From: Smithella sp.
GTDB taxonomy: Bacteria; Desulfobacterota; Syntrophia; Syntrophales; Smithellaceae
Direction of reading: 5' to 3'
Assembly (NCBI GenBank): GCA_035350895.1
Contig: DAOPVC010000004.1
Coordinates: 1,223 to 65,222 of the forward strand
Length of the DNA stretch: 64,000 nt
Positions 681 through 54,746 of the stretch are shown here, piece after piece. The stretch's first letter is position 1. The number at the start of each line of letters is the position of its first letter. The translations under genes and the position numbers were made by a program. The notes under the pieces are model-generated. The model worked only from the letters and a program-made list of their open reading frames with translations. It did no database searches and was not told the origin of the DNA.

Positions 681-709
681 TTGACAAGATTTATTTTTTA
701 CATTAAAAT
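681..709 (+). promoter_or_regulatory. Sigma70-type promoter of the leu operon leader
   Basis: TTGACA (681-686), an exact 17-nt spacer, then TAAAAT (704-709). It lies about 290 nt upstream of the leuA start. Confidence 0.6.
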
Positions 710-755
710 GTCACGAATTTGGGAAAAGGCATAAATATAAACGATGTCGGGAACA

Positions 756-863
756 ATGAAAAAACAAATTTTAATATTGAACATTCTGCCTCTTCTTCTG
801 GGACTCGCGCTGTTGCGCCTTTTACTAAAGGCCACCCGCCCATCGTTTTTAGGTCATCATTAG
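756..863 (+). CDS. Leucine-rich leader peptide (35 aa) of a putative leu attenuator
   Basis: Hand translation gives MKKQILILNILPLLLGLALLRLLLKATRPSFLGHH followed by TAG. 13 of 35 codons are Leu and all six Leu codons are used. A second in-frame ATG lies at 744. It sits between the promoter and an intrinsic terminator upstream of leuA. Confidence 0.55.
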   Translation: MKKQILILNILPLLLGLALLRLLLKATRPSFLGHH

Positions 864-886
864 GACAGCAAAATAATGGATTACCT

Positions 887-922
887 AAAAGGCCGTGGGT
901 AAAAACCACGGCCTTTTTTATT
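887..922 (+). terminator. Intrinsic terminator (attenuator) in the leuA leader
   Basis: GGCCGTGG (891-898), loop GTAAAAA, CCACGGCC (906-913), followed by TTTTTTATT. The upstream A-run can extend the stem. Confidence 0.7.
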
Positions 923-996
923 ATATAAAGGTACATATCCCGATAGCCTATGGCTACGGGATCAATTCCTAATAGTCATTAGAAGGAGATACTGCT

Positions 997-2544
997 ATGA
1001 AAAAAGATAAAAATCGCGTTTACATTTTCGATACAACATTAAGGGACGGCGAACAATCCCCGGGATACAGCATGAATACAGAGGAAAAATTGATGCTCGC
1101 CCGTCAACTCGAAAGGCTGGGCGTCGATATCATCGAGGCGGGATTTCCCATCGCGTCCGAAGGGGACTTTGACGCTGTCCGGCAGATTGCGCGGGAGATT
1201 AAAAAATCTCAGGTGGCCGGCCTTGCCCGTGCCAATAAGATCGACATCGACCGCGCCTGGCAGGCGATAAAAGACGCCGTGCATCCCCGTATCCATACTT
1301 TCATTTCTTCATCGGATATTCATTTGAAATATCAACTCAAGAAAAGCCGGGAGCAAGTGCTTAAAGAAGCGGTTGCCGCTGTCAAACTGGCCCGTTCTTA
1401 CACGGATAATGTCGAATTTTCGCCGATGGATGCCACGCGCTCGGATAAGGATTATCTGGTGGAAATGGTCTCCGCCGTTATTGATGCCGGGGCCGGCACG
1501 GTCAATATTCCCGATACCGTTGGTTATGCCATCCCGGAAGAATTCGGCAATCTGATCGCTTATCTTTTTGCCAACGTGAAAAATATCGATGATACGATTA
1601 TTGCCACCCACTGTCATAACGATTTGGGTCTGGCTGTTGCCAACTCCCTGGCCGCCATCAGGCAGGGGGCACGCCAGATCGAATGCACCATCAACGGCAT
1701 CGGCGAGCGGGCGGGCAATACGGCCATGGAAGAAGTGGTTATGGCGTTGCAAACCCGCAAAGATCTTTTCGGGCTTTACACAAAGATTAAGACAGATCAG
1801 ATCTATAAAACGTCGCGGCTGCTCACGCAGATCACCGGCATATCGGTACAGCCGAACAAAGCCATTGTGGGCGCCAACGCTTTCGCACACGAATCGGGTA
1901 TTCATCAGGACGGCTTGATCAAGGAGAAAATCACGTATGAAATCATGACCCCTCAATCCGTCGGGATCAGCGATACACATATCGTACTGGGCAAGCATTC
2001 CGGTCGCAACGCTATTTCACACCACTTAAAAAAAATGGGCTATCTGCTGAACGATGAACAAATCAACAAGGTCGCGGCAAGAGTTAAGGAACTGGCCGAC
2101 ATCAAGAAAGATATTTACGACGAAGACCTGGAGGTGATTCTTTCCGAAGAGATCTACCGGGGCGAGGATAAATACAGCCTGATTTACCTTAACGTTGTCA
2201 GCGGCAATGTAGCGATTCCCACAGCAACGATGGAAATGCAAATAGCCAAAGAAGTCGTCCGGGAAGCGGGATTCGGCAACGGTCCGGTTGATGCGACGTT
2301 TGCGGCTATCCGCAACATCACCAAAACCAATTATCCGCTGATGAAATATATTGTCAACGCCATCACGGGTGGATCGGACGCGCAGGGCGAAGTTACGGTA
2401 CAACTGAAATACAATGGTCATTCCGTTGTCGGTCGCGGGGCGCATCCCGATGTTATTGTCGCGTCCGCCAAAGCCTATATCAATGCGCTGAATCGTCTCG
2501 AATTTTTAAAAGACAATATTAAAAAGGTTAAAATTGTTGAATAA
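997..2544 (+). CDS. leuA: 2-isopropylmalate synthase
   Basis: 515 aa. It has the HMGL-like N-terminus [13 protein letters not shown], the [13 protein letters not shown] motif and a C-terminal LeuA regulatory domain. The RBS GAAGGAGA lies upstream. Confidence 0.95.
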
Positions 2545-2595: not shown

Positions 2596-3855
2596 GTGGG
2601 CAACACTATTACGGAAAAAATTTTACTGGCTCATACAAAGCTGAAAAAAATATACGCCGGCCAGTTGATCAATGCGCGGGTTGATATCGCACTGGGCAAT
2701 GACGTCACCGCTCCGATAGCTATTCATGAATTTTACAAGTCGGGCGGGACAAAAGTATTCAATAAAAACAAAGTAGCGCTGGTTCTGGATCACTTCACGC
2801 CGAATAAAGATATTAATTCGGCGCAACAATGCAAAACCGTGCGTGAGTTTGCCGCCCAGCAGAAAATAACTCATTTTTATGAAGGCGGAAATGTAGGCGT
2901 TGAACACGCCTTGCTCCCGGAACAGGGTATCGTTCTGCCGGGCGACCTGATCGTAGGCGCGGACAGTCATACCTGCACTTACGGAGCGTTGGGAGCATTT
3001 GCCACAGGGGTGGGCAGCACCGATCTGGCGGCGGTCATGCTTACGGGCGAACTTTGGTTTAAAGTTCCGTCATCGATCAAATTCGTCATTAACGGCAAAT
3101 TACAAAAATGGGTTTCCGGCAAGGATTTAATTTTGCACATCATCGGACGCATCGGCGTGGACGGCGCCCTTTATCAGGCGATGGAGTTCACCGGAGACAC
3201 CATCGGGAAACTGCCCATGGCCGACAGACTTTCGATGGCCAATATGGCGATCGAAGCCGGAGCGAAAAACGGCATTTTCGTTCCCGATAACATTACGGAA
3301 GAATACGTTAAGAAAAGAGCCAAGCGCGATTACAAATTCTATTTTTCCGACGACGATGCCGCCTATACCGACATCCTGGAAATCGACGCCGCGACTATCG
3401 AGCCGCAGGTGGCCTTCCCCCATCTGCCGTCTAACGTCAGAGGGATCAGCAAAGCAGGCAGGGTGAAAATTGATCAGGCCCTGATCGGATCCTGCACGAA
3501 CGGCCGGATTGAGGACTTGAGGATTGCCGCCCGGGTTCTGAAAAATCGCAACGCGGCAAAAGACGTACGATTGATTATTGTTCCGGCAACTCCGGAAATT
3601 TATAAGGCGGCGCTGAAAGAAGGATTGATTGAGACTTTCATGAAAGCCGGAGCCGTCATCAGTCCGCCGTCATGCGGTGCCTGCCTGGGCGGTCACATGG
3701 GAATTCTGGCGGCCGGAGAAAGAGCGGTCGCGACAACGAACCGAAACTTCATCGGCCGGATGGGACATCCGAAAAGTGAAGTTTATCTGGCGAATCCGGC
3801 CGTGGCGGCCGCTTCCGCCGTGCTGGGAAGAATTGCTTCTCCGGAAGAATTATAA
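2596..3855 (+). CDS. leuC: 3-isopropylmalate dehydratase large subunit
   Basis: 419 aa of the aconitase family. It has the DSHT, GSCTNGR and SCGACLG Fe-S ligand motifs. GTG start with an AAGGAGAG RBS. Confidence 0.95.
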
Positions 3856-3868
3856 GAAAGCATCCATG

Positions 3869-4016
3869 TCCCACTTAGCTTCGCACGTGGGATAATTCAA
3901 CTTGCAGATATTACTGCGCTACGCTTGTAATATCTGAGTTTCATTAAAATTTGGGACTCATTACAACTTACAATCTTCTATACACATTGTTTCTGAAGAT
4001 TGAGTCTCATTAAAAA
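3869..4016. repeat. Mosaic hairpin repeat element, copy A (leuC-leuD spacer)
   Basis: Hairpin TCCCAC-12nt-GTGGGA is followed by the linker TAATTCAAC. Next comes hairpin CAGATATTAC-TGCGCTACGCTT-GTAATATCTG. Then the linkers GAGTTTCATTAAAAT and GGACTCATTACAACTTAC. Next comes hairpin CAATCTTC-16nt-GAAGATTG, then GAGTCTCATTAAAAA. Confidence 0.7.
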
Positions 4017-4027
4017 GGATTTTTACC

Positions 4028-4534
4028 ATGATATTCAAAGGAAGAGTTTGGAAATTTGGAGACAATATCGACACAGACGCGATTATTCCGGCGCGTTATC
4101 TGACGACATCCGATCCTAAAGAGCTGGCGGCTCACTGCATGGAAGACGCCGATCCCGATTTTGTCGCCAAAATGAACCCAGGCGACATTATTCTGGGCGG
4201 GGAAAACTTCGGGTGCGGCTCTTCGCGAGAACATGCACCCATTTCAATAAAAGCAGCCGGCGTTTCCTGCGTTATCGCCAAGAGTTTCGCCCGTATTTTT
4301 TACCGCAACTCCTTCAATATGGGGCTGCCCATTTTCGAATCCCGCGAACTGGCGGACGCGATTGCAGAGGGAGAGGAAATCCGCGTGGACAGCGCCGCGG
4401 GAACGATAACCGTCACCGGTTCTCACCAGACCTTCCGGATCAATCCGATTCCTCCTTTTATGGAAGAGCTGATTGCCGACGGCGGTTTGATGAAACATAT
4501 TGTCAGGGAGAGAGAGAGCAAATCACGGGCATGA
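4028..4534 (+). CDS. leuD: 3-isopropylmalate dehydratase small subunit
   Basis: 168 aa with the [13 protein letters not shown] motif typical of LeuD/aconitase swivel domains. Confidence 0.95.
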
Positions 4535-4574: not shown

Positions 4575-4691
4575 GGGTATCATACCCTCCGCTATGCGGG
4601 ATTGTTTCCAATAGCGTTTAGCTATTAGATAATTCGACTAAAAAACTTCAATGCGCTTTGCTTTTGAAGTTTTAGTCTCATTACAACTTAC
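4575..4691. repeat. Mosaic hairpin repeat element, copy B (leuD-leuB spacer)
   Basis: GGATTGTTTCCAAT is followed by hairpin AATAGC-GTTTA-GCTATT and the linker AGATAATTCGAC. Next comes hairpin AAAACTTCAA-TGCGCTTTGCTT-TTGAAGTTTT, then the linker AGTCTCATTACAACTTAC. Confidence 0.7.
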
Positions 4692-4750
4692 CAAATGCGC
4701 TGCGCCTATAGTGACCTTAGGTTATGTGCTTACGGAATTGGAGTTTCACA

Positions 4751-5845
4751 ATGAAGAGAGAGCGTTTTAAAATTGCTGTTTTTGCCGGTGACGGCATCGG
4801 CCGGGAAATCATGAAAGAAGCGCTGAAAATTATAAAAATTATCTCCGACGATAAGAACATTCATTTTCAACTCCATGAGGGGCTTGCCGGCGGCTGCGCT
4901 TACGATCGTTTCGGCACGCCGCTGCCGGATTCCAGCCTTCAACTTGCCCGGCAAAGCGACGCCGTTTTACTGGGAGCCGTTGGCGGACCGCAATGGGAAA
5001 ATCTGGATTACAGTATCCGGCCGGAAAGAGCGCTTCTGGGATTGCGCGGCAGCCTGGGCATTTATGCCAACTTACGACCGATTGTCGCTTTCGATGAACT
5101 TCTGGATGCCTCCCCGCTGAAACGATCCATTGTGCAGGGCATCGATATCATGATTGTCCGCGAATTGACCGGCGATGTCTATTTCGGCAAACCACGCGGC
5201 ATCAAACAAGGGAAAAACGGAAAACGGAAGGGTGTCAACACGATGGTTTATTCCGAAGATGAAATTCGTCGCATCGCCGTCCGCGCTTTCGAAATAGCCC
5301 GCACACGCAGAAAGAATCTCCTCTCGGTAGACAAAGCCAATATTCTCGAAACGATGGAACTCTGGCGGAATGTGATCACCGACGTCGGCCGGAGCTATCC
5401 GGATGTAACGCTGCAACATATGTATGTCGACAACTGCGCTTTGCAGCTTATCCGCAATCCGGCTCAGTTTGACGTTATTGTCACGACCAATTTATTCGGC
5501 GACATATTGAGCGATGAAGCCGCCATGCTAACCGGCTCCATCGGCATGCTTCCATCGGCCAGCCTGGGGAAAAAATCCGCCTTATATGAACCGATTCATG
5601 GATCGGCGCCGGACATAGCCGGTCAGAACGTGGCCAATCCGCTGGCCATGATTCTTTCAGTGGCGTTGATGCTTCGTTATTCCCTGTCCATGCCCGCCGA
5701 AGCCCAGCTGATCGAGAACGCCGTCACTGAAACACTGAAAGAAGGATTCAGAACGCGGGATATCCATCAACCGGATAAAAAGCTTGTCAGCACCGCGGAG
5801 ATGGGCGATCATGTCGCAGAAAATCTGCGCAGACTTCTGAATTAA
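4751..5845 (+). CDS. leuB: 3-isopropylmalate dehydrogenase
   Basis: It has the [25 protein letters not shown] signature and the N-terminal [10 protein letters not shown]. The start is placed at ATG 4751 (TGGAG RBS 7 nt upstream) rather than at the ORF-track start 4724. Confidence 0.93.
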
Positions 5846-5879: not shown

Positions 5880-6509
5880 GTGAAGAAAATGGGATCTGTT
5901 GTTTTTCTGGAAAAAATATTCATGGAGCCTCCCCGCGAAAAAATATACCAACGGCTCGGCTACAAAAAAAGAACAACCACGCTCTCATCCGACCAGCAAA
6001 AGCAAACGGATATTTTCATCCGGGAAGCGGCTTCTGTCATTTCTCTCCGGGGGGTTTTCTTACGCCTGCCCATTGTTCATCATGACGGAAAAACAATATT
6101 TTTGTCGGAAAACATTCAACTCAGCAGCGAAAAGCTGTGTGTGTTTCTGCGCGACTGCCGCGAAGCTGTCCTGATGGGCGCAACGGCAGGCAATGCCGTT
6201 ATGGAAGCCATCAGGGAAAAAACGCGTCAAGATGACCTGGCAGCGGCGGTTGTTTACGACGCCACCGCCAGTGAAATGACAGATGCGACACTGGACTGGA
6301 TTATGAATTATTTAAACCGGCTTCTTCGCCGTGAAGGGAAATCCCTTTTGCCGCGCCGTTTTTCCGCGGGCTATGCCGATTTCAATCTGGAAAATCAAAA
6401 AACAATTTACGACAAACTGCAGATGGAAAAAATCGATGTAAAAATCAATCCAAGCTATCTGCTTTTACCCGAAAAATCAGTTACCGCCGTCGGCGGCATA
6501 TGCGGATAA
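5880..6509 (+). CDS. Stand-alone methionine synthase reactivation (AdoMet-binding) domain protein
   Basis: About 209 aa. It resembles the C-terminal activation domain of MetH (..RRFSAGYADF..LLPEKSVTAVGGI). The MetH core at 9357-11771 lacks this domain. The start codon is uncertain. Confidence 0.7.
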   Translation: MKKMGSVVFLEKIFMEPPREKIYQRLGYKKRTTTLSSDQQKQTDIFIREAASVISLRGVFLRLPIVHHDGKTIFLSENIQLSSEKLCVFLRDCREAVLMGATAGNAVMEAIREKTRQDDLAAAVVYDATASEMTDATLDWIMNYLNRLLRREGKSLLPRRFSAGYADFNLENQKTIYDKLQMEKIDVKINPSYLLLPEKSVTAVGGICG

Positions 6510-6575: not shown

Positions 6576-6604
6576 TTGACACACTAGCGATAAAATTTTA
6601 TAGT
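6576..6604 (+). promoter_or_regulatory. Sigma70-type promoter upstream of the REC-PAS-HD-GYP gene
   Basis: TTGACA (6576-6581), a 17-nt spacer, then TATAGT (6599-6604). Confidence 0.5.
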
Positions 6605-6704: not shown

Positions 6705-9263
6705 ATGGAGAACAACACGGGATCCAAATCCGACAAACAATCAAGACTGCATGTGTTAATCCTGGACGATTCTGAAGATGATGCAATGCTCATCGTCCGC
6801 GAACTTGTCAAAGGCGGCTACAAACCCGTGTATGACAGGATCGAAAGCGCAACCGCACTGCAAACAGCCCTGCAAGAAAAACCATGGGACATCATTCTTT
6901 GTGATTACAGCATGCCGGGTTTTAATGCTCCGGCGGCAATAAATCTGTTAAAAAAATCCAGGGCAGATATTCCCATCATCATTGTTTCGGGAACGGTCGG
7001 TGAAGAAACGGCCATCGAATGCATGCGTTTGGGCGCTCAGGATTATGTGATGAAAACCAACCTGTCCCGTCTTTGTCCGGCTATAGCACGAGAGATCGAG
7101 GAAACAAAAAACAAACGCAATCAAAACATTGCCGAGGCAAAACTCCGGCAGAGTGAAGAAAAATACCGCAATATTCTTGAACACATGCAGGAAGGGTATT
7201 TTGAAGTCGATCTGGCCGGCAACTTTATTTTTCTGAACAATACGGTGTGCAAAACCTTGGGTTATTCCCGAGAGGAACTCATCGGAATGAATAATCGTCA
7301 ATATACGGATGAAAAAGAATTAAAGAAGATTTTTCAGGCATACAACAACGTTTATACCACCGGCAAACCAATTCAAGAACTAACTTGGATTGTTCACCAG
7401 AAAAACGGCGGGAAAAGATATATTGCCGGCTCTGTTTCCTTAAAGAAAGATGAAGCCGGGAAACCAATTGGATTTACCGGAATGGTCCGGGATGTCACCG
7501 AGCAAAAACAGATTGAAGAAAAATTGCGGGAAGAGGAACGCAGATTCAGAACCCTTGCAGATCAATCGTCGGATATTATTCTGCTGGTCAATCGGAACGG
7601 CATTATCACTTATGAAAACAAGGCCGTTCATAAGATTTTGGGATACCAGCCGGAGGAAAGAATCGGAGCAAACGCTTCATACAATATTCATCCGGATGAT
7701 CTGAAAAACAATACCGAAGAATTCAGGAAAATATTCGCGGATGCAAACGCTCCTGTTTTACGAACGGAGGTTCGCATCCGCCACAAAGACGGTAGCTGGC
7801 GCACATTCGAAGAAGTGGCCAGCAGCCTTTCCAGGGATCATTTTGTCGAACTGGTCATTATAAACCTGCGCGACATCACCGAACGCAAGCGTTTTGAAGA
7901 GGCTTTAAGAAAAAGCGAACTGATGTTTCGCAGTCTCTTCCAAAACAATCCGGTGGGAGTTTTCCTGCTGAAAGACAGAAAATTTCTGGAAGTCAATCCG
8001 GCGCTCTGCAAAATGACCGGATATGCTCCGGAGGAACTTATCGGGCAATCCGTCAGTGTCGGCTACAGCTCTGATCAGGAATTTGAACGCGCGGGCAAAA
8101 TACTTTACAAACAAGTCCTGGAAAAAGGTTCCGGGTTTACCGAGGCCCGCCTGAAACGCAAGACCGGTGAAATTTTCGAAGCGTTGTTATACATTGCCCC
8201 CGTCGATCCGCAGGACAGCTCGCTGGGATATGAAGGAGCCATGCTTGATATCACCGAGCGCAAAAAAACGGAAAATGCTCTCCGCGAAAGCGAACGGAAA
8301 TACCGCAACATCTTTGAAAATGCCATGGAAGGCATTTATCAGGCGACCAATGAAGGCGATTTTATAACGGTCAATACCGCTTTCGCCCGGATGGCCGGAT
8401 ATGAATCTCCGAAAGATTTGATCGAATCCATCAGGAATATTTCGACCCAGCTTTATGTTCATCCGGAAGACCGGGAACGATTTCTGGGAATCAGAAAGAC
8501 GAAAGGGTTTGTGGATAACTTTGAGGTTGAATTCTACAAAAAGGATGGAAGCACTTTCTGGGTCGTTATCAATGCCCGGGCCGTCAAGGATGACGCCGGG
8601 AACGCTTTGTATACGGAGGGGCTTATCGAAGATATTACGCTTCGGAAACGGGCGGAAGAAGATCTTCGAGAGAGTCTTGAAAGACTGAAGAAAGCGGTCA
8701 ACACCACCATTCAAGTTCTGGTGTCCGCCCTGGAAGTAAGAGATCCCTACACCGCCGGACACCAGTCCCGGTCAGCGGATCTGGCCTGCGCCATCGCCGC
8801 AGAGATGGGATTGTCTCAGGAAAAGATCGACGGAATCCGCATGGCGGGCGTGATTCATGATATCGGGAAAATATCCATCCCGGTCGAAATACTGTCCAAA
8901 CCATCGAAGCTGACAAATCTTGAATTTTCTCTGATCAAAGAACACTCCCAGAGCGGATTCGAGATGCTTAAGGATATTGATTCTCCCTGGCCGCTGGCGG
9001 AAATTGTTCAGCAGCATCATGAACGCATCAACGGAACCGGTTATCCGAAAAATCTAAAAGGAGATGAAATTCTTCTTGAAGCCCGCATTCTTACTGTTGC
9101 CGACGTTGTGGAGGCTATGGCATCCCACCGTCCCTATCGCGCTTCGCTGGGCATCGAAACCGCCCTGGAAGAAATCGAAAAAAACAAAGGCATTCTTTAT
9201 GATGAAGCCGTTGCCAACGCCTGCCTGAAATTATTCCGCGAAAAAGGCTATGTTCTGGAATAA
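6705..9263 (+). CDS. Response regulator with multiple PAS/PAC domains and a C-terminal HD-GYP domain (putative c-di-GMP phosphodiesterase)
   Basis: 852 aa. It has an N-terminal receiver (LILDDSEDD...DYSMPG) and at least four PAS-like blocks with repeated ITERK/VTEQK junctions. The HD-GYP motifs are HDIGK and HHERINGTGYP. Confidence 0.85.
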   Translation: MENNTGSKSDKQSRLHVLILDDSEDDAMLIVRELVKGGYKPVYDRIESATALQTALQEKPWDIILCDYSMPGFNAPAAINLLKKSRADIPIIIVSGTVGEETAIECMRLGAQDYVMKTNLSRLCPAIAREIEETKNKRNQNIAEAKLRQSEEKYRNILEHMQEGYFEVDLAGNFIFLNNTVCKTLGYSREELIGMNNRQYTDEKELKKIFQAYNNVYTTGKPIQELTWIVHQKNGGKRYIAGSVSLKKDEAGKPIGFTGMVRDVTEQKQIEEKLREEERRFRTLADQSSDIILLVNRNGIITYENKAVHKILGYQPEERIGANASYNIHPDDLKNNTEEFRKIFADANAPVLRTEVRIRHKDGSWRTFEEVASSLSRDHFVELVIINLRDITERKRFEEALRKSELMFRSLFQNNPVGVFLLKDRKFLEVNPALCKMTGYAPEELIGQSVSVGYSSDQEFERAGKILYKQVLEKGSGFTEARLKRKTGEIFEALLYIAPVDPQDSSLGYEGAMLDITERKKTENALRESERKYRNIFENAMEGIYQATNEGDFITVNTAFARMAGYESPKDLIESIRNISTQLYVHPEDRERFLGIRKTKGFVDNFEVEFYKKDGSTFWVVINARAVKDDAGNALYTEGLIEDITLRKRAEEDLRESLERLKKAVNTTIQVLVSALEVRDPYTAGHQSRSADLACAIAAEMGLSQEKIDGIRMAGVIHDIGKISIPVEILSKPSKLTNLEFSLIKEHSQSGFEMLKDIDSPWPLAEIVQQHHERINGTGYPKNLKGDEILLEARILTVADVVEAMASHRPYRASLGIETALEEIEKNKGILYDEAVANACLKLFREKGYVLE

Positions 9264-50886: not shown

Positions 50887-51013
50887 GTAATGAGACTCAC
50901 CGAAAACAAACGCAGTGCGGTTTGAGGTGTTAGTCGAATTATCCCACTTGCGAAGCAATGTGGGATTTGGCACTGTCTAAGAACAAACGCAGCGAAGCGA
51001 AGTGGAATTCGAG
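50887..51013. repeat. Mosaic hairpin repeat element, copy C (inverted orientation; hisC-rpsU spacer)
   Basis: GTAATGAGACTC is followed by an imperfect hairpin and the linker TTAGTCGAATTATC. Next comes hairpin ATCCCAC-TTGCGAAGCAAT-GTGGGAT, then a second AACAAACGCAGCGAAGCG...GGAATTCGAG module. Confidence 0.65.
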
Positions 51014-54672: not shown

Positions 54673-54746
54673 GTAATGAGACTCAAAATTCAGGAGTATC
54701 GTGAACTGAATTTTGTAAATCGAATTATCCAAAGCCCTGGCTTGGA
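54673..54746. repeat. Mosaic hairpin repeat element, copy D (inverted orientation; dut-DUF39 spacer)
   Basis: GTAATGAGACTC is followed by hairpin CAAAATTCAG-12nt-CTGAATTTTG and the linker TAAATCGAATTATC. Next comes hairpin CCAAAGCC-CT-GGCTTGG. Confidence 0.65.

Follow-up and report, generated by a model that had tools for sequence, protein, structure and literature searches.

In enterobacteria, the leucine genes are controlled by leuL (RF00512), an attenuator in which a short open reading frame (ORF) with four consecutive leucine codons lies directly before leuA, together with mutually exclusive antiterminator and terminator structures, and in which the position of the stop codon lets a terminating ribosome mask the antiterminator; the leader of Escherichia coli is 28 codons long. 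The ilv-leu operon of Staphylococcus aureus has a leucine-rich attenuator peptide, which acts together with CodY (PMC5794164). In Geobacter, leuA is controlled by a leucine-specific T-box (PMC2700814; PMC3766115), and in Actinobacteria it is preceded by the LEU element, a conserved pseudoknot with a proposed protein partner (PMC1262725). A survey found the amino-acid attenuator motifs of Rfam to be largely confined to the gamma-proteobacteria (PMC3766115). Here, we describe the leader of the leucine operon in a 64-kb stretch of Smithella sp. DNA (the window; all coordinates are window positions). The region 681-996, between a divergently oriented upstream region or gene and the leucine operon, very probably holds a ribosome-mediated leader-peptide attenuator through which the availability of charged tRNA-Leu governs transcription of leuA-leuC-leuD-leuB.

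Judged by its sequence, the Syntrophales element works like the classical leu attenuator and lies outside that sequence family, as a new family of a known kind of regulator. Its logic is that of leuL, with a run of Leu codons in a short ORF directly before leuA, mutually exclusive hairpins, and the same placement of the stop codon; it differs in the greater length of its leader (39 codons), in its 12-13 Leu codons, which are of all six kinds and spread over ~57 nt, and in having no detectable sequence or structure homology to RF00512. A scan of 400-1100 against Rfam gave 24 matches at E up to 10, none of them at the gathering score, and neither Leu_leader RF00512 nor any T-box family was among them. 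The sub-threshold matches to HrrF, STnc180, rli61, and Termite-leu were all driven by the terminator hairpin and none was accepted; the match to Termite-leu (RF01730; PMC2864571) over 884-986 reached 21.3 bits, versus a gathering score of 51 (E = 0.009-0.05), and the locus is not a member of that family. This match spans the terminator hairpin, the downstream hairpin, and the ribosome-binding site (RBS), and owes its score to the A-richness around the RBS and to a GC-rich hairpin of generic type. With ilv-leu of S. aureus, the element shares a Leu-rich leader peptide before a branched-chain amino-acid operon outside the gamma-proteobacteria, but the phylum and the operon are different and there is no sequence relationship. 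The T-box of Geobacter, a genus formerly placed with Smithella in the delta-proteobacteria, has the same target, leuA, and is likewise a terminator/antiterminator switch reporting tRNA-Leu charging; however, it needs no translation and recognizes uncharged tRNA directly, by its specifier codon and T-box sequence, whereas the Smithella locus has a translated-looking Leu-rich ORF. An earlier sequence-only reading of this DNA had suggested that leu genes in Desulfobacterota-type genomes are more often associated with T-boxes, which agrees with leuA of Geobacter (PMC2700814), whereas none is detectable at the window locus. Like the actinobacterial LEU element, the Smithella element is a lineage-specific conserved RNA in the leuA 5′ region; unlike it, it consists of a leader peptide and a terminator, with no pseudoknot. 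No description of a leucine leader in Syntrophales was found in the searchable literature. Leader-peptide attenuation is textbook and the understanding of its mechanism is unchanged; the element is found in an order where it was not previously catalogued. The Syntrophales, slow-growing syntrophic anaerobes that are important in methanogenic digesters and sediments, would use the logic of the leu attenuator with an unrelated sequence family, whereas Geobacter, once placed in the same class, relies on a T-box at leuA (PMC2700814).

The case rests on comparison with relatives, since promoter and terminator patterns alone do not exceed shuffled sequence (3 promoter-like sites versus 1.8 expected, and 1 terminator-like site versus 0.7; neither is significant alone). 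Relatives were sampled as the 80 best species-level LeuA loci, which all belong to Smithellaceae, Syntrophus, or other Syntrophales and encode LeuA proteins 71-95% identical to that of the window; the upper value is reached by uncultured Smithella genomes. Homologous leaders precede leuA in ~77 of the 80 species genomes. A homologous small ORF lies no more than 420 nt upstream of leuA at 69 of the loci; at most of the others an inserted repeat array separates a more distant leader from leuA, or the leader has a divergent form, and it is clearly absent at one, L039. That simple promoter and terminator scans show no enrichment over shuffles might be taken to favor chance, by which a hairpin and a short ORF would coincide in an AT-rich intergenic region with a site resembling a promoter; the probability of this is negligible, and the reading is already refuted by the arrangement kept across these genomes, by covariation in the terminator, and by conservation of Leu at the codon level. 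The distinct homologous sequences used below number 58 for codons (aligned in frame), 68 for the terminator and antiterminator, 57 for fixed-length constructs, 59 for the promoter, and 66 for segment 1 (defined below), and the alignment is ready for an RNA family model.

The promoter TTGACA-17-TAAAAT, which the sequence-only reading had pointed out, is borne out at 681-709 with 11 of 12 consensus matches. At least 29 of the 59 distinct leaders have a perfect TTGACA and, after 17 nt, a TAnnnT -10 element, situated 28-40 nt ahead of their start, and this fixed distance in several clades supports a dedicated promoter. Transcription would start near 716, and the attenuated transcript expected from such a promoter would be ~200 nt long (716 to ~919).

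The leader ORF had been proposed to run from 756 to 863 and to encode MKKQILILNILPLLLGLALLRLLLKATRPSFLGHH, a peptide of 35 residues with 13 Leu, the runs LLL and LLRLLL, and all six Leu codons. This content stands, but the start does not: the position kept in relatives is 744, as ATG or, in Syntrophus, as GTG or TTG, which makes the leader 39 codons long. Leu accounts for 13 of the 39 codons (P ~1e-5 at the local Leu frequency of 8.5%). In six Syntrophus loci (L051, L054, L056, L058, L059, and L062), the homologous frame has no ATG and carries GTG or TTG at the conserved start; AAAGG lies 13-17 nt upstream of that codon, and the leader would start at a non-ATG codon.

The codons point to a translated ORF in which Leu is what counts: in the Leu-rich part, the Leu positions are kept. 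The N-terminal halves are unrelated between clades (MSDIARNQNL... versus MFSFTATTI...), yet the ORF usually has 39 codons. Across the 58 sequences, the Leu core (G L A L L R/C L L L) allows no change at second codon positions and any change at third positions, and CTG, CTT, TTG, CTC, and TTA interchange in it; two alignment columns are 100% Leu, while 38-59% of the sequences have a non-consensus codon there. The last 26 codons contain on average 10.2 Leu (range 7-12) and only 0.9 Ile plus Val. The position of the stop is fixed in 58 of 58, with TAG in 23, TGA in 22, and TAA in 13. A different constraint applies to codons 18-23 of this 26-codon block, which are leader codons 31-36 (window 834-851 in the frame from 744, overlapping 837-854) and read NGC CCR TCG TTT TTA GGT: here, the third positions are conserved too. 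As read from the alignment, this conservation acts on the RNA and has no basis at the peptide level; the last six sense codons are conserved as nucleotides because they form the 5′ strand of the antiterminator. An arrest-peptide role for RPSFLG was rejected, since what is conserved is the nucleotide sequence, which a paralogous family reads in other frames.

These patterns also bear on the reading of the ORF as a functional small hydrophobic membrane peptide, with the hairpin as a leaky terminator or an RNA-stabilizing structure and no sensing of leucine. The core ILILNILPLLLGLALLRLLL does resemble a transmembrane segment, Gly and Ala are kept at the amino-acid level with free third positions, and gene callers report the ORF in public data: a peptide search returned 20 clusters. 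Those clusters consist of ORFs of 39-57 aa annotated as 'hypothetical protein' or unnamed, and homologs are found only at this size and without a Pfam domain; the N-terminal half is not kept between clades, and the 64-kb window holds a single copy of the leader, with no second one. The sequence-only reading had expected Leu-codon runs, and not the peptide, to be kept, and this proved correct: synonymous codons are swapped, the N-terminal half is unrelated, and the terminator is kept downstream, so that the scenario it had named as fatal to its proposal, relatives with a membrane peptide and no terminator, is not what the homologs show. The membrane-peptide reading is, on this evidence and that of the paralogous leaders below, highly improbable. 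An annotation rule follows, by which dozens of 39-aa 'hypothetical proteins' upstream of leuA would be leader peptides.

The intrinsic terminator that had been proposed was confirmed, with a stem of 887-898/906-917, a T6 tract ending at 919, and a predicted energy of -21.3 kcal/mol; the left and right arms lie in segments 3 (883-900) and 4 (906-917). It is kept in all homologs, and two pairs of its stem show G-C to A-U covariation (39 versus 21 and 60 versus 4). The alternative structure joins segment 3 to segment 2 (838-854), inside the last leader codons. Of the two pairings suggested earlier by eye, 847-853/884-890 is correct and conserved, as part of a 9-bp helix, 846-854/883-891; the other, 834-839/895-900, can form in the window sequence only, whereas the conserved, minimum-energy register consists of G845-C893 and 838-843/895-900.

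The exchange of the two structures was modeled by folding transcripts truncated at 902 or 905, before the 3′ arm of the terminator, with masks of 30 nt, the generally known size of a ribosome footprint. The truncated transcript folds into the antiterminator (-19.9 kcal/mol for the isolated region), and keeps it both without a ribosome and with a mask whose A site stands at the Leu codons in 792-822, in line with the earlier suggestion that a ribosome stalled at Leu codons leaves the pairing free. The further suggestion that a ribosome at the stop codon disrupts it also agrees with the folds, in which a mask over 846-875 removes the antiterminator, as does one that extends to 839, with its A site at the final Leu codon of the run. 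In all 68 homologs, the truncated fold pairs 5-8 of the first nine bases of the terminator arm with segment 2, and mean energies are nearly equal (-23.4 kcal/mol for the antiterminator versus -23.5 for the terminator); as modeled, the two structures are mutually exclusive in every one of them.

RNAalifold, run on the MAFFT alignment, recovered the terminator only, because a 1-nt difference in register between clades (ACCUAAAA versus ACCUAAA) misaligns the partner of the antiterminator. The antiterminator pairs were therefore anchored by hand and then recounted on the fixed-length constructs. Each pair is kept in 63-67 of the 68 sequences. One varies as U-A in 44, U-G in 15, and C-G in 8, with no C-A; among the 57 distinct constructs the corresponding counts are 34, 15, and 7, again with no C-A. 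In these constructs, 95.3% of cells are paired, compared with 33-59% when partners are slid, and eight cells have double changes, a number that 5 of 500 shuffles attain. In metatranscriptomes of related strains, Logan contigs break at ~858-923; these breaks reflect assembly and strain variation, are not 3′ ends, and were not used as evidence.

The same RNA recurs before another operon. Metagenome contigs scanned with a loose DNA pattern gave 120 loci, with the full motif in 18, of which 11 are leuA leaders like that of the window and in 7 (L094, L102, L144, L155, L164, L170, and L174) a nearly identical set of segment 2, segment 3, and terminator stands before an operon for a four-subunit (gamma-delta-alpha-beta) 2-oxoacid:ferredoxin oxidoreductase, a member of the pyruvate/2-ketoisovalerate family (TIGR02175 and TIGR02179). 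The GC content of these seven contigs is 45-67%. All seven leaders fold into the same terminator and antiterminator alternatives, and the terminal pair of the antiterminator helix is A-U in this family versus U-A in the leuA family (AGGA/UCCU versus AGGU/ACCU). Six of the leaders are 32-59 aa long and contain 8-13 Leu, as in MTSMGKRKALNLESLLGLLRLSLLLVGLNPSPVVFRKV and MTGEYKRSISILFELLLCLLLLVLSLSIARRF; that of L144, read by hand, is a 28-codon frame with 7 Leu and a stop ~19 nt upstream of the TCG of segment 2. The oxidoreductase leaders read segment 2 in the other two frames, as PVVFR... or as ARRF followed by a stop inside segment 2, yet they are Leu-rich, which separates the constraint on the RNA from the constraint on the Leu run. 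On sequence grounds, this change of frame is the strongest argument against both a functional small protein and an incidental ORF. The C-terminal 'motif' of a putative membrane peptide is an RNA-level feature that the paralogs read in other frames, and, where the context is readable, leaders stand directly before leuA or this one oxidoreductase operon, always with the terminator next.

The reuse of the RNA can also be read in another way, namely that the switch is real but answers to a factor acting in trans, which could be a small molecule, an uncharged tRNA, or an RNA-binding protein, and not to a ribosome stalled on Leu codons, the ORF being incidental or auxiliary. The nucleotide conservation of segments 2 and 3 and the terminator is far above the norm for attenuators, these parts recur almost unchanged before a different operon, and the conserved GGN, GCN, and NGC codons of the Leu region are not explained by a need for Leu codons. 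Set against this, neither a T-box nor any other Rfam family was accepted for the locus, with no T-box even at E up to 10; synonymous changes leave the richness in Leu intact, and it is found whichever of the three frames the conserved RNA is read in; the frame is open in every lineage and 39 codons long despite unrelated N-termini; and most leaders stop 7-20 nt after the TCG of segment 2 (that of L144 just before it), where a terminating ribosome would mask segment 2. Control by a trans-acting factor is therefore improbable, and attenuation by a translating ribosome is the reading followed here.

The paralogous leaders point to the ferredoxin oxidoreductase operon and suggest that it is probably tied to leucine metabolism. 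A bolder reading, which we hold to be possible but rather doubtful, is that the RNA is a reusable cassette placed before at least two operons, each time with a Leu-rich ORF in a new frame, and that the oxidoreductase is a leucine-biosynthetic 2-oxoacid synthase. If the operon is truly under tRNA-Leu control, the enzyme may reductively carboxylate branched-chain acyl-CoA to 2-oxoisocaproate or 2-oxoisovalerate, a route whose regulation in these anaerobes would run alongside that of the isopropylmalate pathway.

In the proposed attenuator, transcription from the promoter at 681-709 would begin near 716 and a ribosome would translate the 39-codon leader (744-863), with 12 Leu codons in 771-827. 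When leucine is plentiful, the ribosome would reach the stop at 861 and cover segment 2, leaving segment 3 to pair with segment 4, so that the terminator forms and the polymerase stops in the U-tract at ~919, releasing a leader RNA of ~200 nt. When leucine is scarce, the ribosome would stall in the Leu cluster, upstream of segment 2, which could then pair with segment 3 as it emerges; the resulting antiterminator (about -20 kcal/mol, compared with -21 for the terminator) would allow read-through into leuA. If the leader is not translated, segment 1 (739-751) would pair with 835-848 and sequester segment 2, giving termination by default. The ribosome footprints, the pausing, and the coupling of transcription and translation are taken over from the classical model, and the timing, the role of segment 1, and the response to leucine are inferred.

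Segment 1 is probably the anti-antiterminator of the classical four-segment design. The unconstrained minimum-energy fold of the entire leader joins 739-751 (AAACGAUG.CGGG) to 835-838 and 841-848. When the nascent leaders of 66 homologs were folded to the end of segment 2, with a dinucleotide-shuffled upstream part as the control, pairing with the leader start region or first codons took up 10.9 of 19 segment-2 bases on average, versus 3.9 in the shuffled controls, and at least eight segment-2 bases were paired with the leader 5′ region in 82% of leaders versus 17.5% of shuffles. The partner sequences vary by clade (AAAAACGAUG, CCUGAAAGUGACG, AUGACGGCGGC, and AACGACG), and a compensatory change is seen in L005 and L007, which have ACAAUG with CAUUGU where other loci have ACGAUG with CAUCGU. 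Segment 1 of Smithella overlaps the leader's own start codon, unlike that of enterobacterial leuL, and the Leu codons lie between segments 1 and 2, whereas those of enterobacterial attenuators lie inside segment 1.

Several observations weigh against the attenuator as proposed. A plain duplex-energy test of segment 1 is weak (mean z -0.7), and the Leu codons stand in the loop between segments 1 and 2 and outside segment 1, so that it is not obvious how a stalled ribosome prevents the 1:2 pairing; for these two reasons the role of segment 1 is graded as probable and not as established. The Shine-Dalgarno-like sequences before ATG 744 and ATG 756 are weak. The full-length minimum-energy fold contains the terminator always, even with ribosome masks; the switch must therefore be kinetic, and truncated transcripts were folded because full-length masked folds cannot show it. 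The antiterminator has few compensatory changes and is supported mainly by conservation, while both of its strands bear other constraints. Finally, at 801-818 the model does not explain the conserved Gly (GGN) and Ala (GCN) codons of GLALL, which are kept at the amino-acid level with free third positions, nor the next non-Leu codon of the run, NGC (Arg, Cys, Gly, or Ser), of which only the second and third nucleotides are conserved. The NGC codon may owe its conservation to a small hairpin at 817-832 (GCCUUU/AAAGGC); as a conserved pause or 1:2 element it was not accepted beyond a possibility, with four pairs kept, the fifth broken in 25 of 68 sequences, and no clear covariation. Pairing of the conserved CUGGGN (798-803) with GCCC (838-841) would comprise 4-5 bp only, is inconsistently possible among the homologs, and was not adopted.

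The features of the leader and the operon are collected in the table. The leuA RBS expected downstream of the terminator is present, as AAGGAG at 983-988 before the ATG at 997.

Table. Features of the leuA leader and the leucine operon in the window.
Feature	Position	Strand	Remarks
Sigma-70-type promoter, TTGACA-17-TAAAAT	681..709	+	TTGACA 681-686, 17-nt spacer, TAAAAT 704-709; 11/12 matches
Segment 1, candidate anti-antiterminator strand, AAACGAUGUCGGG	739..751	+	Overlaps start codon 744 and Shine-Dalgarno-like GGGA of ATG 756; putative role
Leader ORF, 39 codons + TAG, MSGTMKKQILILNILPLLLGLALLRLLLKATRPSFLGHH	744..863	+	Frame open from ATG 744; alternative in-frame start 756
Regulatory Leu codon cluster, 12 Leu codons (putative)	771..827	+	Dense runs 786-800, 804-815, 819-827
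Segment 2, antiterminator 5′ strand, GCCCAUCGUUUUUAGGU	838..854	+	Inside last leader codons, ends 7 nt before stop; pairs with 883-900
Leader stop codon TAG	861..863	+	7 nt after segment 2; terminating ribosome would cover ~846-875, blocking segment 2
Segment 3, ACCUAAAAGGCCGUGGGU	883..900	+	Antiterminator 3′ strand and terminator 5′ arm at once
Intrinsic terminator	887..919	+	12-bp G+C-rich stem 887-898/906-917, 7-nt loop 899-905, T6 914-919, -21.3 kcal/mol
Repeat hairpin module in leuA 5′ untranslated region	928..969	+	Hairpin 938-962; outside attenuator, absent from most homologous leaders
leuA + RBS	983..2544	+	AAGGAG 983-988, ATG 997; first gene of leuA-leuC-leuD-leuB, operon end 5845
leuA	997-2544	+	2-isopropylmalate synthase; NCBIfam equivalog NF002086, 791 bits, above curated cut-off
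leuC	2596-3855	+	NCBIfam equivalog TIGR02083, above curated cut-off
leuD	4028-4534	+	Equivalog TIGR02084, 233.5 bits, just under curated cut-off 245.85; LeuD/DmdB subfamily model TIGR02087 passed
leuB	4724-5845	+	NCBIfam equivalog TIGR00169, above curated cut-off

The hairpin module in the leuA 5′ untranslated region belongs to a modular repeat that is dispersed among intergenic regions and built as [GC-rich hairpin]-ATAATTCGAC-[AT-rich hairpin]-GAGTCTCATTA, for which no Rfam match was found. Besides 928-969, it occupies 3868-4015 in the leuC-leuD spacer and 4585-4690 in the leuD-leuB spacer, with further sites on the minus strand at ~50890-50965 and ~54675-54745; GAGTCTCATTA occurs five times with at most one mismatch, versus 0.78 expected. 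The repeat is in tandem, with a 96-nt period, in L012, L013, and L077, and in some relatives an array of 2.9 copies lies between the attenuator and leuA (L012:2205-2477). Its hairpin shows compensatory changes, from GAUAGCC/GGCUAC to GAUGGCC/GGCCAC. Downstream of the leucine operon, the ORF 5880-6509 (209 aa) has no NCBIfam match, and a second near-consensus promoter-like site, TTGACA-17-TATAGT (11/12), at 6576-6604, lies upstream of a large multi-PAS-domain signaling protein of 852 aa (6705-9263).

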